A stretch of 64,000 bases of DNA from an uncultured Alphaproteobacteria bacterium (GTDB lineage: Bacteria > Pseudomonadota > Alphaproteobacteria > RF32 > CAG-239). Shown here piece after piece: positions 6,117-59,763 of the stretch; position 1 is the first letter of the stretch, and each line of letters begins with the position of its first letter. Both the position numbers and the translations under genes were made by a program. The DNA is taken from contig CALYAY010000002.1 in assembly GCA_944393695.1 (NCBI GenBank), positions 112,892 to 176,891 on the forward strand. The letters run 5' to 3'. The notes beneath the pieces were generated by a model, which saw only the letters and a list, made by a program, of their open reading frames with translations, ran no database searches and was not told the DNA's origin.

Positions 6117-6406
6117 GGTTAAAAAATCTAGATTTAAAAAGCAAAAATCACACCAAACCCTCGAACTTTTGTTCTCTTGATGTCGATTCGCAGAATAATA
6201 CCTTTAAAAGTCGCTTTTTTATACTCCGGTCGGACTCGGATTGCAAGCAATTTTTCACAAAATGAGTCAAGAATTTTATTCTCTTTTTTAACAACCGGCC
6301 AGAGCAGGAGTCATTTTCCGATTCTCCCTCACCAAACCGCATTTATCCGGAATTGCAAAAAAAATTAACCATCCAAACAAGGCTTATTCCCCTTGCTCAT
6401 CATCCG

Positions 6407-6760
6407 TCACAAATTACCCCAAAAGCGCCAATACAGCATATTTCCGGCCAGATAAATCGTCGGCAACGCCAACACCAGCCAATAATTTTTATTTCTCCGC
6501 AATCGCATCCGTATACCAACTGCCAGCGGAACCAAAAACAAAACAACATTTATCATTGAACGCAACACATACATCTCCCGTGTACGATAAAACAAACCGC
6601 CCCAATCTCCGCCCCAATGCTCAAAATTGCAATACATACTGTAAGCATCTTCAATCCACAAACAGACCCAAAACAAATTCCACAAAACAAAAATCAACAA
6701 AATCTTGTTTCCCAGCACAAAACGCCAAAATGCATCATATTCCTCTGAGTTATCAGCCAT
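6407..6760 (-). CDS. Hypothetical small membrane protein (tandem paralog A, about 3 TM helices)
   Basis: 117-aa ORF MADNSEEYDAFWRFVLGNK...LALPTIYLAGNMLYWRFWGNL. It shares YDAFWRFVL, W.LFWV and the C-terminal LALP.(I/V)YLAGNMLYWRFWGNL with the adjacent ORF. Confidence 0.5.
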   Translation of the reverse strand: MADNSEEYDAFWRFVLGNKILLIFVLWNLFWVCLWIEDAYSMYCNFEHWGGDWGGLFYRTREMYVLRSMINVVLFLVPLAVGIRMRLRRNKNYWLVLALPTIYLAGNMLYWRFWGNL

Positions 6761-6781
6761 ACCGTTCTCCCCCGCCTAACG

Positions 6782-7126
6782 TCACAAATTGCCCCAAAAC
6801 CGCCAATACAGCATATTTCCGGCCAGATAAACCATCGGCAACGCCAACACCAATTTATAAAAACGTATCTTCCGCCACCACATAATTACTCCCGCGACCA
6901 ACGGCACCACCAGAAACAAACCACTTTGACAAACACAACCGGCATATGCGTCAAGGCTTACATAACATTCTCCGTTACCTTCCCAATATTCAAAGTTAGA
7001 ATAAGTTTCATAAACACTGTAACCAAGCAGCCACACCCAAAATAAATCCCATAGCAAAAAGAACAGCGCCGCCTTGTTATTCAGCACAAAACGCCAAAAT
7101 GCATCATACCCCTCTTCCTCGTTCAT
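6782..7126 (-). CDS. Hypothetical small membrane protein (tandem paralog B)
   Basis: Start placed at the internal ATG (MNEEEGYDAFWRFVLNNK...). The C-terminus LALPMVYLAGNMLYWRFWGNL is near-identical to paralog A. The track ORF extends to 7300 from an upstream alternative start. Confidence 0.5.
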   Translation of the reverse strand: MNEEEGYDAFWRFVLNNKAALFFLLWDLFWVWLLGYSVYETYSNFEYWEGNGECYVSLDAYAGCVCQSGLFLVVPLVAGVIMWWRKIRFYKLVLALPMVYLAGNMLYWRFWGNL

Positions 7127-14604: not shown

Positions 14605-14769
14605 AATTTCAAATAATTTAAGTGATACAATAATTTTATTTAATATTCATATAATTAACATACTTTTAATAAAAAACGAGAAATATTTTTGTCAAAAACT
14701 TAGTTGTTCACGCAAGTAGAAAGCTTGAAGCTTTCGTAGCGGCACAAACAACCTCTTTTATGGCGCCTC

Positions 14770-14844
14770 ACACGGACTCGGTTAACTTATTGATTTATAA
14801 AGAAAAAAGACGCTTTTCAGCGTCTTCATCTTGATTGGCAGGGG
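14770..14844 (-). repeat. Direct repeat copy B: duplicate of the tRNA-Trp 3' end (9 nt), its terminator hairpin and about 40 nt of flank (att-like)
   Basis: ...cacacggactcggttaacttattgatttat..aaaaaagacgcttttcagcgtcttcatcttgattggcagggg matches 17600..17676, with an A/T indel and a g/t change. Confidence 0.6.
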
Positions 14845-14864
14845 ATATAGGATAATATACGGAC
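14836..14864. repeat. 29-nt cassette-junction repeat, copy 1 (tggcaggggatataggataatatacggac)
   Basis: It recurs at 16683..16711 with 2 mismatches. It begins with the tRNA-Trp 3' fragment tggcagggg. Confidence 0.5.
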
Positions 14865-14925
14865 TTTTATTATTCCATTTATCTGAAGAATATGCTATTA
14901 TGCGTAAAAATTTGAAGGAATCAAT

Positions 14926-16571: not shown

Positions 16572-16682
16572 AACGTAAAATTTTTAAATAATATTCATAT
16601 TTTTAATTAAAGTACGCCAAAGATAAAACCAACCACAATTTTTGTCAATAAAAAAACCGCCCTTCCAGACAGTTCTTTTTAT

Positions 16683-16711
16683 TGGTAGGGGATATAGGAT
16701 AATATACAGAC
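16683..16711. repeat. 29-nt cassette-junction repeat, copy 2 (tggtaggggatataggataatatacagac)
   Basis: Matches 14836..14864. Like copy 1, it lies upstream of a plus-strand ORF. Confidence 0.5.
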
Positions 16712-16888
16712 TATTTTTATTACGATACTCGCCCCTAAAACAAGAAATTTCAATAAAATGAAACTATACCTAACATTCAAATATCTTAACAAATATTTTT
16801 GATTATACTTAATTTTTGACTTCCACTAAAAATATGTTACATTAAATCTACTATTTGGGATTTAGTATTTTATCTCAAGGAAGAATGA

Positions 16889-17599: not shown

Positions 17600-17676
17600 G
17601 CACACAGGCTCAATTAACTTATTGATTTATTATAAAAAAAGACGCTTTTCAGCGTCTTCATCTTGAGTGGCAGGGG
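17600..17676 (-). repeat. Direct repeat copy A (native tRNA-Trp 3' end plus its terminator and flank)
   Basis: Counterpart of 14770..14844. It includes the terminator hairpin gacgcttttcagcgtc plus an A7 run, which reads as U7 on the tRNA strand. Confidence 0.6.
17634..17667 (-). terminator. Intrinsic terminator of tRNA-Trp
   Basis: The minus strand reads ctcaagatgaag gacgctgaaaagcgtc ttttttt immediately after the tRNA 3' CCA. Confidence 0.6.
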
Positions 17677-17743
17677 CAGAAGGATTCGAACCCTCGACAC
17701 TCGGTTTTGGAGACCGATGCTCTACCAACTGAGCTATACCCCT
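17668..17743 (-). tRNA. trnW: tRNA-Trp (anticodon CCA)
   Basis: The minus strand reads AGGGGTATAGCTCAGTTGGTAGAGCATCGGTCTCCAAAACCGAGTGTCGAGGGTTCGAATCCTTCTGCCCCTGCCA. It is 76 nt with a cloverleaf, anticodon loop CTCCAAA, T-loop GGTTCGAATCC and an encoded CCA. Confidence 0.9.
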
Positions 17744-17897: not shown

Positions 17898-20321
17898 TTA
17901 CTCTTTGGTCTGAATCCGCATGGCATAGAACGAACGCCAAACGAAAATCAAAGCCAAAGCCATAAAGACGGCTCCCAGCGTCAGCGAAACGCAACGCGGC
18001 GCCGACACGGCAATTTCCACCGCCAGCAACCCGAACAAAGTCGTAAACTTAATAATCGGGTTAAGCGCCACGGAAGAAGTATCCTTATACGGATCACCCA
18101 CAGTATCGCCGACCACGGCCGCCGCATGCAGATCCGTTCCTTTTTCGCCCAGATCAACTTCGACAACCTTTTTGGCATTATCCCATGCCCCACCGGCATT
18201 CGCCATATACAGCGCCTGGAACAAACCGAAAACGGCAATTGAAATCAGATAACTGGCAAACAAATTCGGATCAAAGCAGGCAAACGCCAGTGTAAACGAG
18301 AAAATGGCCACAAAGATGTTCAGCATGCCTTTCTGGGCATATACCGTACAAATACGCACCACTTCCTTGCTGTCCTCCACCGAAGCCGCTTTTTTGGTAT
18401 TCAGCTTGATGTGTTTTTTAATAAAATCGACCGCACGGTAAGCACCGGTTGAAACCGCCTGCATCGAAGCACCGGAGAACCAGTAGATAACCGCACCGCC
18501 CAGAATAATGCCGAACAGCACTTCCGGATCAAGCAACGACAACTTCAGGTTCAACAGCAGGATAATCGAAAAGATCATCGTTGCCGCACCGATAACCGCC
18601 GTACCGATAAGCACCGGCTTGGCCGTTGCCTTAAAGGTATTTCCGGCACCGTCATTGGCTTCCAGAAAATGTTTGCCGCTTTCAAAATCAGGCTTAAAGC
18701 CGAAATCTTTTTCAATTTCTTTGTTAATACCCCGCATATTTTCAATCTGCGACAATTCAAACACCGACTGGGCGTTATCCGCCACCGGCCCGTAACTGTC
18801 AACGGCAATATTAACCGGCCCCATGCCCAACATACCGAAGGCCACCAGGCCAAAAGCAAAAATACTGGGATAGACCATATAGGCATCCAGACCCGAACGC
18901 GATGTGGCATAAGCCACCGCCATCAGGGCCACCATAACGACACCCTGCCAGAAAGCCGAGAAGTTTCCGGAAACAATACCCGAAATAATATTCAGCGAAG
19001 CCCCGGCCTCACGACTGGAGGAAACAATTTCCTGAACATGCTTTGACTTCGGCGAGGTAAAGATTTTGGTAAATTCCGGAATCAACGCCGCAGCCAAAGT
19101 ACCACAGGAAATAATAACCGAAAGCTTCCACCACAAATCCGGCCCCATATCGCCGATCATCACATACGAAACACCGAAGGTAACCAAAATCGAAATAATC
19201 GAAGTCAGCCAGATAAGGTGTGTCAACGGCTTTTCAAAATCAAAAGTTTTCTTGTTGCCGTAAAGGAGTTTGGAAAACCAGCCGTTAAGCGCATAAGAAA
19301 GCATGGAAGTAATAATCATCAGCACGCGCATGGCAAAAATCCACACAATCAAACGTGCCTGAATATCAATTCCGCCGCTCATCAAAGCCAGCTCGCCGTT
19401 TTGATTATACATCATTCCGGCACCCAGAACAATAAAGCTGATAAGCGCCACACCCGTCACGCCATAGGTTTCAAAACCATCGGCAGTCGGCCCCACGGAG
19501 TCACCGGCATTATCACCGGTACAATCGGCAATCACACCCGGATTGCGGGCATCGTCTTCATCAATTTTAAAAATAATCTTCATCAAATCGGCACCGATAT
19601 CGGCAATCTTGGTAAAGATACCGCCGCAAATACGCAGCGCCGCGGCACCCAGCGATTCTCCGATGGCAAATCCCACAAAGCAGGCACCGGCACTTTCCTT
19701 AGGAACATACAGCAGAATGATAATCATCATGATGAGTTCAACACAGATTAACAAAACGCCAATTGACATTCCCGAACGCAGCGGCAGGCTCATAACCGGA
19801 TAAGCCTTACCCTGCAGCGACAAAAAGGCCGTGCGGGAATTGGCATAAGTGTTAATTCTCATACCGAACCAGGCCACCGTATAAGACCCCAGAATACCCA
19901 AAACCGACCACATCAGAATTGTCAGCACTTTAGGCATCGGCGTATTGTTCAGATAATAGAAATAATAAAAAATACAGGCCGCAATAAACAATTCCAAAAC
20001 CAGCAGCAGTTTCGACTGTTGCTTCATATAAGTTTTGCAGGTTTCATAAATGGTATTGGACACATTAAGCATTGCCTTATGAGCCGGAATTCTTTTAATC
20101 TTAAAAAATTCATACAGCCCGAAAAGCATCCCCAAGATACAAATTCCGATACCATAAGCCAAAATCTGACTTCCGGTCACAGCATAACCGAAAATATTAT
20201 ACCCGACATCCAGGCTCGGAACATTAAGATCAATTTCTGAAGCATGAGCTTTAGAAAGACCGGCTGCCAAAACCATAACCATGGCCGCGGCAAAAGAACC
20301 GATTCTTTTTAGTGCAGACAT
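17898..20321 (-). CDS. hppA: Membrane-bound proton/sodium-translocating pyrophosphatase
   Basis: 807 aa and polytopic. It carries the signature motifs GDNAGD, DNAGG... and ...VGDTVGDPYKDTSSVALNPIIK. Confidence 0.9.
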   Translation of the reverse strand: MSALKRIGSFAAAMVMVLAAGLSKAHASEIDLNVPSLDVGYNIFGYAVTGSQILAYGIGICILGMLFGLYEFFKIKRIPAHKAMLNVSNTIYETCKTYMKQQSKLLLVLELFIAACIFYYFYYLNNTPMPKVLTILMWSVLGILGSYTVAWFGMRINTYANSRTAFLSLQGKAYPVMSLPLRSGMSIGVLLICVELIMMIIILLYVPKESAGACFVGFAIGESLGAAALRICGGIFTKIADIGADLMKIIFKIDEDDARNPGVIADCTGDNAGDSVGPTADGFETYGVTGVALISFIVLGAGMMYNQNGELALMSGGIDIQARLIVWIFAMRVLMIITSMLSYALNGWFSKLLYGNKKTFDFEKPLTHLIWLTSIISILVTFGVSYVMIGDMGPDLWWKLSVIISCGTLAAALIPEFTKIFTSPKSKHVQEIVSSSREAGASLNIISGIVSGNFSAFWQGVVMVALMAVAYATSRSGLDAYMVYPSIFAFGLVAFGMLGMGPVNIAVDSYGPVADNAQSVFELSQIENMRGINKEIEKDFGFKPDFESGKHFLEANDGAGNTFKATAKPVLIGTAVIGAATMIFSIILLLNLKLSLLDPEVLFGIILGGAVIYWFSGASMQAVSTGAYRAVDFIKKHIKLNTKKAASVEDSKEVVRICTVYAQKGMLNIFVAIFSFTLAFACFDPNLFASYLISIAVFGLFQALYMANAGGAWDNAKKVVEVDLGEKGTDLHAAAVVGDTVGDPYKDTSSVALNPIIKFTTLFGLLAVEIAVSAPRCVSLTLGAVFMALALIFVWRSFYAMRIQTKE

Positions 20322-20557
20322 CTTACTTTCCTTTTATTGGTTAAAACAAAATTTCAATAAAACAAAATCACGCCCTTTGGGTGATTCTTTTTTATATGCG
20401 CTCATGATAGATTCCTGAGTCTAAATTTTGTGTTAACGCTTTAAAATGATTCAATAAATCGACCTTCGTCCATATAAAAAAATATTGCAAAGACCTCTTG
20501 ACAAAATTTGTCCATCATGCTATTTTGCCCCACGAACTGTTATAATTATAATATATT

Positions 20558-21160
20558 ATGAAAACAATAATAGAAGACATCTGTGATATTATCTCAACGA
20601 TAATGCCGGATGAGGAAGAAATCAAAATCTACAAACAGCGTTGCGACAACATATTCTTTGCGGATATGCTGCTGGATATTCTGGTCTCAAACCTGATATT
20701 CAAGCTGTTTGTTGTACGAAATGCCTCAACTGACGAAGAATATAATGCACCTTCCTCAGTTGCGTTTTTGACCAAACTCAAACAAGTTTTCAATAACGAG
20801 GAACTCAACAAAGAATGGCTGACTTTTTCCAGACTTCATATTGAGTATGTCCTGACTTGGGAAGATCTGAATCCCAGCGTAAGAAAATTCTTGGAATTTG
20901 AGTTTGAGTATGAACACAAAGACATTTTTTCCGAAACCGAAATATGGGAACAGGGAGACAACGAAGAACTCATCTTTGATTATCTCACCCACCTGACCGA
21001 AAAACCGGAAAGGCTCAAAACCGAAGAACAATCCCTCCGCATCCTGTTGGAAGGCATTGTAATTCTCCATCCCCATATTTTGGTAGAAGAAAGATTTCAG
21101 GAACTGATTGGTGATAATATGAAAGAGCTCCAATCCGTTCTTGCTCTGGAAAACTTTTAG
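20558..21160 (+). CDS. Hypothetical acidic protein (200 aa)
   Basis: Clean ORF MKTIIEDICDIISTIMPDEEEIKIYKQRCDN... No family recognised. Confidence 0.45.
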   Translation: MKTIIEDICDIISTIMPDEEEIKIYKQRCDNIFFADMLLDILVSNLIFKLFVVRNASTDEEYNAPSSVAFLTKLKQVFNNEELNKEWLTFSRLHIEYVLTWEDLNPSVRKFLEFEFEYEHKDIFSETEIWEQGDNEELIFDYLTHLTEKPERLKTEEQSLRILLEGIVILHPHILVEERFQELIGDNMKELQSVLALENF

Positions 21161-53560: not shown

Positions 53561-54673
53561 TTGAAGTCCTTTTCAAAATATTATACATTACAGCCAACGG
53601 ATTATTTCAGAATCAGGGCCGCCATGGAAAAAATTTTAATCATAAACATTGCCGTTTTCTGCGCTTGTTTTTTATTTTGTTTCAGTGGACTGAAATTCCT
53701 TCTGTTGCGGAGAAAAAAGCAGGCTTTCTTCCCTTTGTGGCTTTCTCTGGGCATTGCCCTGCCGCTCTTAAGCGTTATCATCCCCTCCCGCGCTGACTTT
53801 ATCGGCACGCTTTCTTTTTACGAAACCTCGGCTGTTGTCATATTATCGGGCATCTGCTTCTTGCTCGTTGCGAAGCTGCCGGCAGCACTGTCCTTTTTAA
53901 TAATTCTGATTTGTGCCGAAACCGGAAGCCTGTTTCTTCCTGCCGGAATATTTTTCTTTTCACCCGAACTCCCCTTCTGGGCCGACCGCGGCCTGCTCAT
54001 TTTAAGCTGGAGTCTTTTTGCCTTTTGCTTCCAATATTTGCGGGTCATTGACGGCATTTTCGGTCTTCAGGGACTGACCTCGGCAATCGGTATCACCTTA
54101 CTGTCGCTCATCGGCGCCGCTCCTGCTCTGCTGGGATACATGAGCATGTCCTTATTCGCCGTTTTCTGTGCCTGGCAGCCGTTTAATGCTTTCCCTGCCA
54201 AATTGCATATGCCGCGCGCCGGCAGCATTTCCCTGGGTTTTCTTCTCGCCTGGCTGATCGTCAAATCCTCTGCCGAAGGAGCCGCCCCCTGCAATCTGTG
54301 CTTCAATATGTTTTATTTCTACCAGATAGTTTTCGGACTGCTGAAAATGTTCTCGCTCAACCGCCGCAACCGCAGCCTGGCGCACAACACCGACTATTAC
54401 CGGGTGTTCGTCAGCGGCCTGTCTCAGCAAAACATTTGCCGGGCAGTCGGCAAACTGATGATTCTGTTGTTGATTTTTGGCTGTTTTGCCGCTTATTCGC
54501 CCAAGTTTTATGCTCTTCCGGCCCTGTCTCTGCTAACCTGTTTCTGGTTTGCCAACCGGCTGCAAAACTGGAGAGAAAACATTCCGACCTTTGCCGAAAT
54601 CAATCAAGACATGGTCAACACCTTCAAAAACAACGTCAATGATATAAAAAACGGACTAAACAGGGACAATTGA
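53561..54673 (+). CDS. Glycosyltransferase family 4 (MraY/WecA-like) polytopic membrane protein, catalytically degenerate
   Basis: RVIDGIFGLQGL aligns with NxxDGIDGL, and HMPRAGSISLGF aligns with MGDAGSxxLGF. The second Asp, the GDAGS Asp and an N-terminal DDxxD motif are missing. Confidence 0.55.
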   Translation: MKSFSKYYTLQPTDYFRIRAAMEKILIINIAVFCACFLFCFSGLKFLLLRRKKQAFFPLWLSLGIALPLLSVIIPSRADFIGTLSFYETSAVVILSGICFLLVAKLPAALSFLIILICAETGSLFLPAGIFFFSPELPFWADRGLLILSWSLFAFCFQYLRVIDGIFGLQGLTSAIGITLLSLIGAAPALLGYMSMSLFAVFCAWQPFNAFPAKLHMPRAGSISLGFLLAWLIVKSSAEGAAPCNLCFNMFYFYQIVFGLLKMFSLNRRNRSLAHNTDYYRVFVSGLSQQNICRAVGKLMILLLIFGCFAAYSPKFYALPALSLLTCFWFANRLQNWRENIPTFAEINQDMVNTFKNNVNDIKNGLNRDN

Positions 54674-54676
54674 CGC

Positions 54677-56035
54677 ATGAAACTTCTGAGGAAACTAAAA
54701 AACTTTTTTTTCCCGCCGGTATCTTCAGATGAAAAACTTCTGAACGAAAACAACTTTCATGTCCGGTTCACCGTCGGCGTCATTGAGTTTGCCGACAATG
54801 TCGAAAGCGACGGCGGCCGCAATTTCTGCAAACTTCTTGAAAACCGGCCTGATTTAAATGTTTTTTACTTTGATGAACCTTTTCCCAAAAATTTTCTGAC
54901 CTTGGAAAGCCGCACCTTTTTTGACATGATAGACCGCGGCCAAACCATCATCGACCGCACCAAAGCCGACGTCATCATCTGGGGCTGCCGCGAAAACGAC
55001 AAAATCCGCCTCAACTTCCAAACCGGCAAACAATACGAGATTGAAGACAAATCCTTTGTTTCCCTGCTTGACAGCCTATACATCCCGGCCGCCATGGTTG
55101 AAAACCCCGCGCTTTTTCCGCCGGCTCTGATCACGCTCATCTGCGGCGCCATAATCAGTGCCGTCACCCCCGCCGATTCCGAGACCAGAATCTACCGGCG
55201 TTACTTGTTGAAAAAAATCATTCATTCTCTGTCCGTTGACGATTCTGCCAAAAAACTTCCCTCGGAATACATGCCCTATATCATGAATTTTCTGGGCATC
55301 ATTTACCTGAGCTACGCCTACGACCGCGAAGACGGCCGCAACTTCCGCACCATTCACAACCTGCTCGACACCGCGCTCAAACATCAGGATCTCATCTCCA
55401 ACCCCATCCACCTGGGCTGCATTTATTATCACATCGGCCAGCTCTATAATTCCGCGGCTCTCTACACCACTCGCAGCCCCGTGCCTTATATGAAAGGCGC
55501 CATAAATTACTACCGCCAGGCTCAGAAATATCTCAGCAAATATACCTACGCCTACGACTACGGCTACATTTCCTACAAACTGGCCGGACTTTTTTTCATC
55601 TACTGGAAACAAACCGAAGACATTCAGGCCCTGCGCGATGCCGTTTTTCAACTGCGCGAAGCCGAAAAAATTTATACTTACGCTTCGTTTCCGTCCTTCT
55701 GGGCCGAGCTTCAGGGACTTTTGGGTCAAATGCTCGCCCTTCTGGGCAATATCACCAAAAGTGCCGAAATATCAGAAATCGCCATTGACTGTTATCACAA
55801 TCAGCAAAAAGTCGTCACCGAGCGCCGCAACCCGCTGGCCTGGGCAAAAATTCAGGAAGCCATTGGCGAAATCCACTGCCACCTTGGTCAAAACGGCGGC
55901 GGACGTTCACACTTCGAACAAGCCATGGAATATTTTCACGATGCTCTTTATGAATACGAAAACCTGCAGCAGGATGAACTCATTCGCAAAATCACCGCCG
56001 GCATCGCCCGTGCCCGCCGCAGCATGAACTATTGA
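54677..56035 (+). CDS. Hypothetical protein (452 aa), C-terminal TPR-like helical repeats
   Basis: Clean ORF with Tyr-rich helical repeats in the C-terminal half. No family recognised. Confidence 0.45.
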   Translation: MKLLRKLKNFFFPPVSSDEKLLNENNFHVRFTVGVIEFADNVESDGGRNFCKLLENRPDLNVFYFDEPFPKNFLTLESRTFFDMIDRGQTIIDRTKADVIIWGCRENDKIRLNFQTGKQYEIEDKSFVSLLDSLYIPAAMVENPALFPPALITLICGAIISAVTPADSETRIYRRYLLKKIIHSLSVDDSAKKLPSEYMPYIMNFLGIIYLSYAYDREDGRNFRTIHNLLDTALKHQDLISNPIHLGCIYYHIGQLYNSAALYTTRSPVPYMKGAINYYRQAQKYLSKYTYAYDYGYISYKLAGLFFIYWKQTEDIQALRDAVFQLREAEKIYTYASFPSFWAELQGLLGQMLALLGNITKSAEISEIAIDCYHNQQKVVTERRNPLAWAKIQEAIGEIHCHLGQNGGGRSHFEQAMEYFHDALYEYENLQQDELIRKITAGIARARRSMNY

Positions 56036-56137
56036 AATCTTACAATAAAAAAATACTTCCTTTCCTGAAAAATTTTAATTTACAATTTACTATTCCGGAA
56101 GTATACATCCCTCGGAAAAAAACAATAGGGAAAAGAA

Positions 56138-57508
56138 ATGATACAAAACATGACCTCGGGAAACCCGACAAGTCTGATTGTCCGGTTTACCATTCCTTTG
56201 CTTATCGGCAATGTCTTTCAACAGCTTTACAGCATTTCCGACATCATCATTGTCGGCCGCCTGCTGGGCATTAATGCTCTGGCTGCTGCCGGCTCGACTG
56301 GTCCCCTGATTTTTCTGCTTATGGCCATAACCATCGGTTTCACCTCCGGCTTAACGGTCATCACCGCCCAGCGCTTCGGCTCCGGCGACAACAGAGGCGT
56401 GCGCCGTTCCGCCGCCACCTCCATCATCATCAGCACCTTGTTCACCCTGACCTTCAGCCTGATAATGATGTTCTTTCTCCGCCCCATACTTCATATGATG
56501 AACGTCCCCGAAGAAATTTTCGAAGACGCCTACAGCTTTATTTCCGTCATGGCTCAGGGGCTGGTTATGATTGTTTTCTACAACCTGCTTTCCGGCATCA
56601 TCCGCGCTCTGGGCGACAGCAAAACCCCGTTGTATTTTCTCATCTTTGCCTCATTGCTAAACATCGCGCTTAACTACTTTTTGATTCAGGGGCTTGGATT
56701 CGGTGTCGAGGGATCTGCTCTGGGAACCGTCATTTCCCTTAGCATTTCCGTCATCTGCTGCTTTTTTTATATTGTCAAAAAATTCCCTATTCTGCGTTTT
56801 CACAAAGACGACTGGCGCATGGATTGGAAATTCACCCGGCAGCACCTGGCCATTGCATTCCCCATGTCTGTCCAGTTTTCCATTATTGCTTTAAGCAGCA
56901 TAGTCATCCAAAGCGTCTGCAATTCCTTCGGCCCGGTCACCATTGCCGCCTTCACCTCGGCCATGCGCATTGAACAGCTGGCCTCCCAGCCGATGGTCTC
57001 CTTTGGCATCGCCATGGCCACCTACACCGCGCAAAACTATGGTGCCGGATTAATCGGCCGCATTCGCCGCGGCGTCTTTAATTGTTCGATGATTTCTCTC
57101 GGCCTCAGCCTGGCAATGGCAGTCATCATTTTCACACTGGGCGAAGAACTGGTTGATATCTTCATCAAAGACCGCAGCGACGACGTGACCGCCCAGGCCC
57201 GGACCTACTTGAACATCAGCGTTTTGTTTTACTTTTTCCTCGGTCAGATATTCATCTACCGCAACGCGCTTCAGGGATTGGGCCGCCCGGTTATTCCGCT
57301 CATTTCCAGCATTGTTGAATTGGGCATGCGTTCTTTTGCCGCAATTGTTCTGGCCGTACACTTTGGCTACATCGGTGTTTGCTGGGCCAGCCCCATTGCC
57401 TGGATCGGCGGCGCGGCCGTTGTCTGCTTTGGTTATTTCTACACCATTCACAACATCGGCACCCGCTACCTTTATTGCCATCACCATTCCGAACTCCCCT
57501 GGCATTAA
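56138..57508 (+). CDS. MATE-family efflux transporter
   Basis: 456 aa with 12 TM helices and the NorM/DinF-like pattern. Confidence 0.85.
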   Translation: MIQNMTSGNPTSLIVRFTIPLLIGNVFQQLYSISDIIIVGRLLGINALAAAGSTGPLIFLLMAITIGFTSGLTVITAQRFGSGDNRGVRRSAATSIIISTLFTLTFSLIMMFFLRPILHMMNVPEEIFEDAYSFISVMAQGLVMIVFYNLLSGIIRALGDSKTPLYFLIFASLLNIALNYFLIQGLGFGVEGSALGTVISLSISVICCFFYIVKKFPILRFHKDDWRMDWKFTRQHLAIAFPMSVQFSIIALSSIVIQSVCNSFGPVTIAAFTSAMRIEQLASQPMVSFGIAMATYTAQNYGAGLIGRIRRGVFNCSMISLGLSLAMAVIIFTLGEELVDIFIKDRSDDVTAQARTYLNISVLFYFFLGQIFIYRNALQGLGRPVIPLISSIVELGMRSFAAIVLAVHFGYIGVCWASPIAWIGGAAVVCFGYFYTIHNIGTRYLYCHHHSELPWH

Positions 57509-57601
57509 CAAAAAGCGCATACTTTTATCTTAAAGCTTGCAATTTTTCAAATTCATGCTTAGATAATTACGTGTTTTTTCAATCTCTCGGGAGCAAATTT
57601 C

Positions 57602-57973
57602 ATGAACACTTCAACATTAAAATCTCTGTTCGACACCTATTTCGTTGATGTTTTAAAAAATCACTACATCGACGCTGAAGGAACCGCCAACCGTCCGCAA
57701 TACTGGTATTTCCAGCTTTTTGCTTTCATTTCTTTATTTATTGTCAGCCTGATTTTCACCACCATCGGCCTGGACATCGTCGTTTATCTCTGTGCTCTGG
57801 CTTTGCTGGCACCGTCACTGTGCCTCGGCATCCGCCGCTTGCATGACCTTGGCCAGTCCGGCTGGCTGATTTTGGCCTCATTCATCCCGGTTCTGAACCT
57901 CGCTTTATTGGTATACTTTTGCTTTCCCGGCAAAACCTCATCCAATTCCGACAGCCGGAAAAAAGCCGCTTAA
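57602..57973 (+). CDS. DUF805 (YhaH-like) membrane protein
   Basis: ...RPQYWYFQLFAFI... ...RRLHDLGQSGW... Confidence 0.6.
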   Translation: MNTSTLKSLFDTYFVDVLKNHYIDAEGTANRPQYWYFQLFAFISLFIVSLIFTTIGLDIVVYLCALALLAPSLCLGIRRLHDLGQSGWLILASFIPVLNLALLVYFCFPGKTSSNSDSRKKAA

Positions 57974-58079
57974 CTAATATTCTAAACAGAAAAAACACCG
58001 CCCCGAATGGTTTCGGGGCTTTATTTTTACCAACAATTAACGGCTCCGTGCAATTATCAATAATAATTGCAGGAGAGCC

Positions 58080-58913
58080 ATGACCAATAACCAGACAAAA
58101 ACAAGAATTACACAAATTGATACCCTGAAGGGTTTTCTGATTTTAAGCGTATGCCTGAGCAACACGCTTCACATTCTGCCTGCCTCAAACCTGAACGCTT
58201 ACACCTGCTCCGTCCTTTATCTTTTCAACATCCAGCTGTTCATCTTTTTCTCCGGCATGTTCTCGCCCCGTTTTTCGCCCAAACGCCTGGGAATTATTTT
58301 TGGCAGCTTTATCCTCTACGGCCTGTTGAGCAACTACCCTTCGCTGACCTTAATACCGCAGATGTTCCTTAACCCGCCTGCCAATCTCTGGTATCTGGAA
58401 TGCCTCATTTTTTGGAAAATAATGATAATTCCTCTATATCCCTTGTTAGCACGCCACCCGAAAAAAATCCTTTTTGCCGCCGCGATTGTTTCTTTGCTTT
58501 GCGGCTATCTTCCCCTGCCGTTGGAAATCGGCAACATCTCCCGCACTCTGGTTTATTTTCCGCTGTTCATTCTCGGGCGTATCTGCACCTGGCCGCAGGT
58601 TAAAAATTTTGCCGACAAAATCTCCCTGCACCGACTGTTATGGGCACTTTTGCCCGTCGGCTACATCCTTATTCTGGCCAATATCGCTTACAGCGACCTC
58701 TATGTTGTTTTTTACAATAAATTCAACTATTTTCACACCCAATGGCCGGATTTTGCCATTTTACTGCGCCTGTTCCAATTCACCGCCGCCGGCATCATCA
58801 GCCTTTTGCTCATCAAAACTCTTCCCGCCGGCAACCGCTTCTTAAACCTCACCGGCCGACATTCTCTTGCCGTTTATCTCGGCTGGTCTTACCTGCTTTT
58901 CCTCCTCAATTAA
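58080..58913 (+). CDS. Acyltransferase family 3 (OafA/YrhL-like) membrane protein
   Basis: ...RITQIDTLKGFLILSVCLSN... A multi-TM protein of 277 aa, on the short side for this family. Confidence 0.6.
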   Translation: MTNNQTKTRITQIDTLKGFLILSVCLSNTLHILPASNLNAYTCSVLYLFNIQLFIFFSGMFSPRFSPKRLGIIFGSFILYGLLSNYPSLTLIPQMFLNPPANLWYLECLIFWKIMIIPLYPLLARHPKKILFAAAIVSLLCGYLPLPLEIGNISRTLVYFPLFILGRICTWPQVKNFADKISLHRLLWALLPVGYILILANIAYSDLYVVFYNKFNYFHTQWPDFAILLRLFQFTAAGIISLLLIKTLPAGNRFLNLTGRHSLAVYLGWSYLLFLLN

Positions 58914-58914
58914 A

Positions 58915-59520
58915 ACCTCTCCCCCTGTCATACTCCACCTCCCTCCTATCATCCCCCCCTCTCCCATCTGTCATTCCCGACCTCTCTTATCTGTCATTCC
59001 CGGCTTGCCCGGAAATCCAGGTAAAACCAAACTTCCTATTCTCCTCCCCCTAAAAACTTAGGGCTGGAGGCAGAAAATATCTCCGGTGGAGATATTTTCA
59101 ACGACAGGCGAGAGTTTGTTAGCTCATGAGCTAGCGGTAGCGAAGCGAAATGAGAGTTACAAACCGAGTGACCGCAGCGACTTAGCAAACGTAGTGAGCT
59201 TAGGAGCCAGAAGGTCGGGGAGGGTTTCATATTCAAACAAAATAAAACTGTCATCCCTCGTTCAGCGCCAGCCTGAACGTCAGGGGATCTTCAAATTTGT
59301 CACCCTCTCATAGATGAGAGGGCCGGGGAGAGCAAATTCAGCCTTACCTTTCTCACCCTCACCCGCGTCACTCCGTTCCGCGACCTCTCCCCTCAAGGGA
59401 GAGGTAAGAATAGGGACAATATCATCCTCGGGTTTAACCCGAGGAGCCAGTCAAACCAACCTTCCTATTATTCTCCCCCTAAAATCTTAGGGGGAGTTAG
59501 AGGGGGTTTTAAAATCCCCC
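58915..59520. repeat. Cluster of direct repeats and perfect hairpins (REP/MITE-like element array)
   Basis: A direct repeat aaccaaMcttcctatt..tctcc.ccccctaaaa.cttaggg occurs at about 59020-59065 and 59452-59495. It holds at least 8 perfect 8-12-bp stem-loops, for example gaaaatatctcc-ggt-ggagatattttc. Tandem ctgtcat(t)ccc(g) motifs sit at 58925-59005. Confidence 0.6.
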
Positions 59521-59763
59521 TCACTTAATCAAAATCTTCACCTGAACCCCGTACACCGACGCCAACATCAAAAGATGCTTCAAAGAAAACGAACGCCCAT
59601 TTTCTATCATCTCAATCCGGCTGACTGAAATCCCGCAGGCCTCCGCCACTTCGGGCAGACTCATTTCCTTTTTCTTGCGCAAAAGCCTCAAACGCCCTCC
59701 CATATCCCGTTTGATACAAAAAATCCGATATTTAATTTTCTTTTTGGAAACCATAATTCTCAC
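59521..59763 (-). CDS. XRE-family helix-turn-helix transcriptional regulator (small)
   Basis: ...MSLPEVAEACGISVSRIEMIENGRSFSLKHLLMLASVYGVQVKILIK is an HTH_XRE domain. The true start is likely an internal Met. Confidence 0.55.
   Translation of the reverse strand: MRIMVSKKKIKYRIFCIKRDMGGRLRLLRKKKEMSLPEVAEACGISVSRIEMIENGRSFSLKHLLMLASVYGVQVKILIK

Follow-up and report, generated by a model that had tools for sequence, protein, structure and literature searches.

REP sequences are imperfect palindromes of 20–40 nt with a conserved 5′ tetranucleotide head of GTAG type, present in tens to hundreds of copies and accompanied by a cognate RAYT (an IS200-like Y1 transposase). As the REP and BIME of enterobacteria, such short palindromes form mosaics between convergent genes and are thought to stabilise upstream mRNA and to attract insertion sequences. 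MITEs are defined by terminal inverted repeats and a target-site duplication of 2–10 bp. In the NIME arrays of Neisseria, 20-bp dRS3 inverted repeats (ATTCCCN8GGGAAT) surround the units, unit number varies by strain, and the arrays adjoin variable surface genes (PMC1797815). Pneumococcal BOX elements are built from modules as boxA-boxB(n)-boxC, have extensive secondary structure, are seen as parasitic and can affect co-transcribed genes (PMC3049150). The cuckoo/alpha-r14 family consists of multicopy, often tandem three-hairpin RNAs of ~120–150 nt that occur in varied contexts in alphaproteobacteria (PMC4615179), and CIMEs (cis-mobilizable elements) are by definition flanked by att sites and devoid of recombination genes (PMC5704250). 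The subject of this report is a spacer block at positions 58914–59522 of a 64-kb stretch of DNA (the window, positions 1–64000) from an uncultured gut alphaproteobacterium. The block, which lies between two convergent genes, probably consists of two nested kinds of non-coding repeat DNA: a mosaic of hairpin modules and, within it, a 153-nt structured element of mobile type.

The 153-nt element, or core, has a well-defined fold. In an alignment of 12 copies, which represent ~5 sequence types from at least four lineages of gut alphaproteobacteria, the fold comprises 41 pairs and 97.9% of cells are paired. Eighteen pairs are changed on both sides, compared with 1–4 in controls with slid partners, and none of 500 shuffles attains the observed values; a first covariation test, made before the 12-copy alignment, covered two lineages only. 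The three hairpins, P1, P2, and P3, are separated by two invariant single-stranded blocks, CAACGACAGGCG and GAGUGACCGCAGCGA (Table 1). P3 is variable, being replaced by a terminator-like hairpin in L053 and extended to an 8-bp stem in the copy at L050 5961 (loci named L001–L054 are contigs of strains, the sister species, a second species called species B, and further relatives). Some variants carry G-U at pairs that are Watson-Crick in other copies and that would be A-C mismatches on the opposite strand; these G-U pairs fit only the + strand of the window. The covariance model of the core (R1), whose E-values are rough owing to a shortened calibration, finds no further copies in the sister-species loci or in the rest of the window. 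An Rfam 15 scan of the window returns two tRNAs and no other family above threshold; nothing overlaps 59061–59213 at E up to 10, and in the species-B array locus only the tRNA passes its gathering score. As judged from its sequence, the core is a conserved non-coding structured element that is multicopy, tandem-prone, and associated with tRNA ends.

The wider distribution of the core emerges from several searches. A distant BLAST match (72% identity, E 9e-12) falls in a faecal contig filed as 'Bacteriophage sp.'. The contig is in fact part of the chromosome of a second gut alphaproteobacterium, which is labelled 'Azospirillum sp. 51_20' and is called species B here. Anchored pattern scans locate the core in nine more species-B contigs, and looser anchors add to the viral scans one chance match in a coding region (L049). 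A profile of the core frame translation detects spurious open reading frames (ORFs) over further copies, four of which lie in loci L050–L054. Searched exhaustively against 1.84 billion representative proteins, the profile yields 62 clusters of spurious ORFs with the core signature, a lower bound on the number of divergent clusters. Many of these clusters run into antisense-tRNA translations with the same junction, marked here by a slash (MAYPEG/WRKK beside MAYPEG/FEPTT; NWWELRG/WRQEK beside NWWELRG/SNSRPS), and several hold two units.

Copies outside the window usually lie just downstream of a tRNA gene and opposite to it in strand, in a recurrent and unusual geometry. In species B, the core lies downstream of tRNA-Pro(tgg) and its terminator, within a second, partial tRNA copy that spans the anticodon stem to the 3′ end plus the terminator, and it is inserted exactly after the anticodon-loop TTTGGG. 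Strains of this species carry one, two, or three tandem 153-nt units. Antisense copies lie just downstream of three other tRNAs: tRNA-Val(tac) in L050, tRNA-Gly(ccc) in L053, and tRNA-Gly(gcc) in L054. Here a GG(G) run precedes the junction at which the 5′ end of the core meets the complement of the tRNA 3′ end. The direct repeats that bracket the core at tRNAs measure 60–75 nt (60–72 nt at these three tRNAs, with 72 nt at the L050 tRNA-Val) and consist of the tRNA 3′ end plus its own terminator region. Where the core is in tandem, the period is 153, 229, or 318 nt, and strains hold 1–3 copies, the 229- and 318-nt units being found in L052 and L053. In every context the junction follows a G-run: TTAGGG/CTGG in the H1 hairpin of the mosaic, TTTGGG/CTGG in the anticodon loop, GAGAGG/CTGG in the T-stem complement, and GCGGG/CTG in the acceptor complement. 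The orientation of the core relative to GC skew is inconsistent across loci. The window itself has a strong and uniform skew, −0.16 to −0.29 in every 4-kb bin, its + strand being C-rich throughout.

In the window and in L001, the core interrupts the first H1 hairpin directly after TTAGGG and so breaks the 3′ arm of that hairpin; at the corresponding place in L004 and L006, H1 is intact. Copies at the same position, 96% identical, occur in L014 and at L050 10145–10297. The L001 core carries four clustered substitutions relative to the window core and is identical to that of L050, which suggests either exchange between copies or an assembly that mixes copies.

Two observations on individual copies stand apart. 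A 23-codon ORF, MRVFVVSQAILERYNKFTRNWSC, with an AGGAG Shine-Dalgarno sequence follows the terminator-like hairpin in each 318-nt unit of L053 (3414–3485 and 3732–3803) and was seen nowhere else. Copies of the 153-nt element in P0154 and P0158 are read as peptide, the repeats lying in the N-terminal part of predicted Cys-rich secreted proteins; either these are in-frame insertions, as with Rickettsia palindromic elements, or the start codons are mis-called.

The mosaic in which the core is nested is identified by its hairpins. The block has five perfect stem-loops with stems of 8 bp or longer, compared with a mean of 0.11 and a maximum of 1 in 300 dinucleotide shuffles of the region, so that the hairpins are not there by chance. 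The block holds 5 of the 26 such hairpins in the 64-kb window, and no second region resembling it is present elsewhere in the window. The original prediction, made from the sequence alone, described a densely hairpinned non-coding block and, as one of two possibilities, a structured non-coding RNA type of locus; the hairpin counts agree with the former, and the strong covariation of 59061–59213 supports the latter as the likely character of that segment. Its figure of at least eight perfect stem-loops was an over-count, as it listed six and five have stems of 8 bp or more. The tandem CTGTCAT motifs that it named are found at 58925, 58968, and 58991, with a further one at 59248, and the left tract also contains a 23-nt tandem pair (58952–58974 and 58975–58997). 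The absence of an adjacent reverse transcriptase, transposase, or Cas gene holds among the Pfam-scanned neighbours. Of the two flanking genes it named, the XRE regulator is clear and the acyltransferase-3 match is weak, falling below the Pfam cut-off (Table 1). A CRISPR array, a retron, and a diversity-generating retroelement are rejected: the block shows no CRISPR-type regular repeat-spacer pattern, no cas or reverse transcriptase gene is found among the scanned neighbours, and the differences between the two 43-nt direct-repeat copies are not adenine-specific.

The modules recur in the same order at no fewer than five further clusters in the ~100 kb of sequence covered for this species. A stretch at L009 7203–7331, ~4.2 kb beyond dnaB at the contig end, is 98% identical to window 59220–59318. 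Modules at L014 19225–19604, in the order of the window, and at L014 20735–20782 lie 3–5 kb past the left end of the window, and those at L050 9990–10830 lie between two other convergent genes; units of ~257 nt are repeated at the L014 contig end and at L050 9990–10830. In the window, L014, and L050, the order runs H1 with its pyrimidine leader, a tail beginning GGGGAGGGT, the A hairpin beginning GTCATCCCTCGTTCAG, H2, H3, an H4-type hairpin, and the next H1. Such a super-unit is ~270 nt long, and ~430 nt in the window because of the 153-nt insert. The direct repeat at 59021–59063 and 59450–59492 (43 nt, 88% identity, offset 429 nt) was originally read as a pair of ~45-bp flanks; the repeat itself is real, but the same module order at three loci means that its copies are consecutive H1 modules of a tandem super-unit rather than flanks of an insertion. 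The block is one super-unit copy plus the start of a second.

Individual modules vary in number and in stem sequence. The A hairpin is present once in the window, twice each in L004, L006, and L007, and three times in L005; it is also found at L009 7233–7331, L014 19358–19401, and L050 10306 and 10564. At homologous module positions the hairpin arms may differ with their complementarity kept, as with the H2 of the window compared with the variant stem CTCTCCCCTTT/AAAGGGGAG at the same position in L014 and L050. Members of the GTCAT...stem-loop...ATCCAGG family with other stems, such as GTCATACTCCGGTTTAACCGGAGTATCCAGG, occur in L004–L008 and L050. Some H1 modules in the L004–L009 spacers (e.g., L005 8189–8230) read GGGAGGGGCGGGGAGGG, with four G-tracts and one-base loops, a G-quadruplex-type motif that would compete with the H1 hairpin. 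An H1-type module also lies at L014 20399–20442, inside a called gene (19605–20627, − strand) and, like the P0154 and P0158 cores, within the N-terminal part of a predicted Cys-rich secreted protein, where it is read as peptide.

Comparison of the spacer between strains, which the original prediction had suggested, shows whole modules to differ. The comparison draws on eight strain-level loci that encode one and the same DnaB protein and cover the spacer or its right-hand part. Across them, the ~300 nt on the right (59214–59520) are conserved, and the left part is swapped module by module, giving spacer lengths of 607 nt in the window, 634 nt in L004 and L006, ~730 nt in L007, 808 nt in L005, and ~400 nt in L008. 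In L008 the left-hand gene set consists of dTDP-sugar genes in place of the acyltransferase, which places the repeat block at the border of a strain-variable glycan gene region, near tRNA-Arg. When L008 1–2979 is set beside window 53561–58913, the dTDP-sugar (rml-type) genes are seen to replace the acyltransferase/DUF805/MatE set. Contigs that carry the acyltransferase gene stop inside the block, at assembly breaks. Exact-protein look-ups place the window in an uncultured bacterium; the sample names resemble human-gut cohorts, and a dnaB relative from the same 90% cluster bears the label 'Pseudomonadota bacterium'.

The modules appear confined to a narrow range. Ten 21-kb loci around dnaB in the sister species (DnaB at least 90% identical) contain none of them and carry ordinary terminators instead. 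A genome collection without the source genome, scanned with CTCCCCCTAAAANCTTAGGG, gives one chance match, in Tepidibacillus. No match is found in JGI metagenomes scanned with the A-module 23-mer, in viral collections scanned with module and core strings, or in a plasmid collection. A six-frame translation of the whole block, concatenated as a protein query, retrieves nothing, whereas the single-frame core profile did work. A literature search under the organism name found nothing relevant. The block is a dispersed, ordered, strain-variable intergenic hairpin-repeat mosaic.

Among described repeats, the mosaic most invites comparison with NIME and BOX arrays. Like NIME, it is an intergenic array of short inverted-repeat units with varied intervening sequence, variable among strains in unit number and length and situated next to genes for variable surface structures; the resemblance is behavioural only. 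NIME also take up opportunistic insertions (PMC1797815), and the mosaic here carries the nested 153-nt element. However, the dRS3 motif is not enriched (5 matches in 64 kb at up to 2 mismatches, compared with 3.9 expected, with one near-match in the block at 58996–59015), the fixed order H1-A-H2-H3-H4 differs from dRS3-RS-dRS3, and NIME belong to another phylum. Membership in NIME is rejected for want of dRS3 enrichment. With BOX, and with RUP and SPRITE, the mosaic shares a modular composite build, extensive secondary structure, and a variable number of internal modules. BOX is largely limited to one species and its nearest relative, much as the modules here are absent from the 21 kb around dnaB of the sister species, but there is no sequence relationship between the two, and the modules here are known from DNA sequence alone. 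The mosaic behaves like NIME and BOX arrays without belonging to those families.

The original prediction also spoke of a nest of REP- or MITE-type elements. Dispersed hairpin repeats are indeed present at other loci of the species (L009, L014, and L050), and the units are not unique to the locus; the defining features of REP and MITE that were tested do not apply. Palindromes clustered in a mosaic between convergent genes recall REP and BIME, but the modules are longer and ordered. The heads that they share read CTGTCAT or consist of a pyrimidine leader and then CTCCCCC. The GTAG-type head is not seen in the module sequences read, on which ground REP is rejected; no RAYT gene occurs among the six Pfam-scanned genes next to the block. 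The core is not a MITE, as its ends, CTGGAGG... and ...GCCAGAAG, are not inverted repeats and no short duplication is present, the duplications being 60–75 nt where they occur.

The core resembles cuckoo/alpha-r14 in being multicopy, tandem, three-hairpin, and of similar length, but it lacks the CCUCCUCCC loop motifs, and no Rfam family, alphaproteobacterial small-RNA families included, matches at E up to 10. The association with tRNA ends and the long flanking duplications are features of the core and not of that family. Elements that target tRNAs, CIMEs included, likewise are bracketed by direct repeats of tRNA 3′ parts and accrete in tandem at the same tRNA (PMC5704250). Such repeats surround the core in relatives (tRNA-Pro of species B, tRNA-Val of L050, tRNA-Gly of L053 and L054) and not in the window. 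The core unit differs from a CIME in being only ~150–260 nt long and without genes, in having repeats that reach ~50 nt into a host-specific terminator, in lying antisense at three tRNAs, and in having copies away from tRNAs, that of the window included.

Several other identities considered for the core were set aside. An RfaH ops-like GCGGTAGCG in P2 was dropped, as it is not kept in other copies. An IS110 bridge RNA is judged unlikely because its internal loops look too small here, and a reading as IS200/IS605 ends was dropped as well. A self-cleaving ribozyme has no Rfam signal. Reading the antisense tRNA end as a primer-binding site gives the wrong geometry for copying the core, and closure of the core by an acceptor stem formed from flanking tRNA-like pieces fits only L054.

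It is possible, if rather unlikely, that the 153-nt element is a host small-RNA gene family, either a trans-acting multicopy RNA or a protein sponge, that spread by gene duplication, with the modules acting as terminators or insulators. The conserved fold, with its two invariant single-stranded blocks as possible seed or binding sites, and the terminator-like hairpin with a U-run at the end of the L053 copies would suit such a gene, and multicopy tandem small RNAs such as cuckoo/alpha-r14 are known in alphaproteobacteria (PMC4615179). At several loci an A/T-rich hexamer (TAAAAA, TATAGC, TAAAGA, GATAAT) lies 7 nt upstream of CTGGAGG, but no promoter is common to all loci, the hexamer is lacking in species B and at L050 5961, and the window copy has no terminator. 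Placement in hairpin loops and in the anticodon loop of a tRNA pseudo-copy, with 60–75-nt duplications at different tRNAs, would be unusual for gene duplication, and presence varies between strains at one locus. A doubtful alternative takes the core for a cis-acting DNA site (transfer origin, single-strand origin, or att-site arm) of tRNA-targeting integrative elements, its copies for att-flanked CIME-like remnants, and the window copy for a stray fragment recombined into the mosaic. Direct repeats of tRNA 3′ parts bracketing the core at tRNA-Pro, tRNA-Val, and tRNA-Gly present the classic attL/attR picture and recall the definition of CIMEs (PMC5704250), the same genome has a 2.8-kb insert at tRNA-Trp with a 76-nt repeat of the same type, and the tRNA-Pro locus of species B also hosts a serine-recombinase prophage, inserted at a point other than the core. 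Yet an imported attP is disfavoured because the long repeats hold ~50 nt of the host-specific terminator downstream of each tRNA, which favours duplication in place. Further, none of the copies has an adjacent integrase, integration at att sites fits neither the pure 153-nt tandem arrays nor the insertion into H1 without a tRNA repeat, and stem covariation, while it could suit an origin folded as single-stranded DNA, is not expected of integrase arm sites.

Two simpler accounts fare worse. A reading of the block as degenerate coding sequence, whether pseudogene or small repeated peptide gene, is effectively refuted. The period of 153 nt equals 51 codons, frame 2 is without a stop in 9 of the 12 copies, the equivalent open frame at L031 1422–1577 is labelled frame 1 because the match there starts 4 nt later, and the core appears in 62 clusters of predicted 'proteins'. 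The core is nevertheless not coding, because variable columns are spread evenly over the codon positions (29, 27, and 25 of 51) and some copies, those of L052 among them, contain stop codons. Moreover, the invariant stretches are contiguous runs of 12–16 nt, third positions included, periods of 229 and 239 nt are not multiples of 3, the called ORFs continue into antisense tRNA, and 18 base pairs are compensatory. An account in which the hairpins serve only as intrinsic terminators for the two convergent genes, and in which the direct repeat arose by chance or local duplication, is very unlikely. The position between convergent genes would fit, the last palindrome overlaps the XRE stop codon, and a co-oriented gene precedes five of the seven core loci; but no hairpin of the block is followed by a T-run, a terminator scan calls none in the block (palindrome 59500–59522 included), and ordinary terminators elsewhere in the window look different. 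As the modules recur at other loci and vary between strains, their dispersal rules out a purely local origin.

The reading of the block as a hairpin mosaic with a nested mobile-type element has its own difficulties. Copies within a species are near-identical, so that the covariation of the core rests on ~5 independent sequence types. No convincing promoter or intrinsic terminator brackets the window copy, and that copy, unlike most of its relatives, is not beside a duplicated tRNA end. No recombinase, reverse transcriptase, or transposase lies next to any core copy, and no clean empty-versus-filled pair with otherwise identical flanks was found, 10 of 10 species-B strains carrying at least one copy. 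The roles proposed for the mosaic, in shaping 3′ ends and as a recombination junction, are drawn by analogy alone.

From its sequence and contexts we infer how the element may function and move. The element would be small, non-autonomous, and duplicative or mobile, with a folded single strand as its working form; the simplest candidate is an RNA transcribed from the + strand, and single-stranded DNA is the alternative. It appears to land at G-run sites in hairpin contexts (the tRNA T-arm and acceptor, the anticodon loop, the H1 loop) and would have spread by a site-preferring process, the window copy being a putative secondary insertion into a repeat hairpin. A bolder proposal, to be entertained only tentatively and improbable as it stands, is that this is a first sighting of a new class of very small gene-less mobile elements of gut alphaproteobacteria, with a folded RNA or single-stranded DNA, insertion after GG(G) in stem-loops (chiefly tRNA T-arm and acceptor ends), unusually long target duplications of 60–75 nt, tandem amplification, and an enzyme that mobilises them. 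The mosaic, by analogy with NIME and BOX, may be selfish or neutral DNA that spreads and is reshuffled as its copies recombine. The flanking convergent transcripts would have their 3′ ends shaped by the hairpins, and the location of the mosaic, bordering a surface-glycan gene set that varies between strains, suggests by the same analogy a recombination junction.

Table 1. Features of the spacer block and its flanking genes, in window coordinates.
Feature	Position	Strand	Remarks
Left flanking gene	58080–58913	+	weak Acyl_transf_3 match, 24.4 bits, cut-off 31 (Pfam)
Pyrimidine-rich tract with CTGTCAT motifs and 23-nt tandem pair	58914–58990	+	strain-specific left edge of mosaic; only in window and L001
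H4-type hairpin module CTGTCAT-TCCCGG-CTTG-CCCGGAAA-TCCAGGT	58991–59022	+	GTCAT...stem-loop...ATCCAGG family
H1 module, left direct-repeat copy	59021–59063	+	pyrimidine leader, then 5′ arm and loop of CTCCCCC-TAAAAACTTA-GGG hairpin; H1 copies also in L009, L014 and L050
153-nt structured core element	59061–59213	+	single full-length match of covariance model R1 in window, 170.5 bits
Core 5′ end (GGG)CTGGAGG	from 59061
Core P1 hairpin	59073–59099
Perfect stem-loop	59073–59099		stem 12 bp
Core conserved single-stranded block CAACGACAGGCG	59099–59110
Core P2 hairpin	59114–59164
7-bp palindrome	59120–59133
Core conserved block GAGTGACCGCAGCGA	59166–59180
Core P3 hairpin	59177–59207
Core 3′ end GGAGCCAGAAG	to 59213
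H1 tail and linker GTCGGGGAGGGTTTCATATTCAAACAAAATAAAA	59214–59247	+	common to L004–L009; shared part of spacer begins here
A-hairpin module CTGTCATCCCTCGTTCAG-CGCCAGC-CTGAACGTCAGGGGATC	59248–59289	+
H2 module CCCTCTCAT-AG-ATGAGAGGG, then CCGGGGAGAGC	59303–59333	+
Perfect stem-loop	59303–59322		stem 9 bp
H3 hairpin ACCTCTCCCC-TCAAG-GGGAGAGGT	59383–59405	+	same module in L014 and at L050 10448
Perfect stem-loop	59383–59405		stem 9 bp
H4-type hairpin ATCATCCTCGGG-TTTAA-CCCGAGGAGCCAGTC	59421–59452	+	copies at L050 10018 and 10480
Perfect stem-loop	59425–59445		stem 10 bp
H1 module, right direct-repeat copy	59450–59496	+	intact hairpin 59473–59496; kept in all strains; opens next super-unit
Perfect stem-loop	59473–59496		stem 10 bp
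Imperfect palindrome GAGGGGGTTTTAAAATCCCCCTC	59500–59522		overlaps XRE stop codon
Right flanking gene	59521–59763	−	clear HTH_3/XRE protein (Pfam)

The surroundings of the block include, among the Pfam-scanned neighbours, Glycos_transf_4, an unknown 452-aa protein, MatE, and DUF805. To the right lie tRNA-Arg(ccg), L28, and DnaB, the last two placed from the gene tables of orthologous loci. The palindrome at 59500–59522 may serve as the 3′-end hairpin of the XRE transcript. An exact-protein look-up of the XRE product with three alternative start codons returned no record.

Other insertions and repeats occur in the same genomes. In species B (L038 671–12310, and L046 and L047), a prophage directly follows the second tRNA-Pro fragment and encodes a large serine recombinase, DUF2924, a gpA-type terminase, a ParB-methylase, and a SAM synthetase; IMG/VR lists these contigs as viral because of it. 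In the window, the last ~9 nt of tRNA-Trp(cca) (17668–17743, − strand) and its terminator hairpin are duplicated 2.8 kb away (14769–14844 and 17601–17676, 76 nt, 89% identical), with a further pair at 14831–14874 and 16678–16721. The segment inside this duplication has a low GC content (0.37–0.41) and small ORFs without a Pfam match, and it resembles a small insertion at the 3′ end of a tRNA gene, with the type of repeat seen around the core at other tRNAs. Short paralogous stretches at 6405–6477 and 6780–6852 (94% identity) and at 6663–6746 and 7032–7115 (76%) sit in two adjacent small genes between rplL and rpoB.

Uncultured human-gut alphaproteobacteria carry species-specific intergenic repeat arrays with NIME- and BOX-like behaviour. 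These arrays fragment metagenome assemblies and mark strain-variable surface-glycan loci, and they are useful in finishing metagenome-assembled genomes and in strain typing. The structure of the 153-nt element is well supported, no Rfam family covers it, and its geometry at the ends of tRNA genes is recurrent and unusual. If it acts as an RNA, it would represent a new multicopy small-RNA family from a gut lineage about which little is known. Should it be mobile, the 60–75-nt duplications and the targeting of hairpins and tRNAs would point to an undescribed insertion mechanism.

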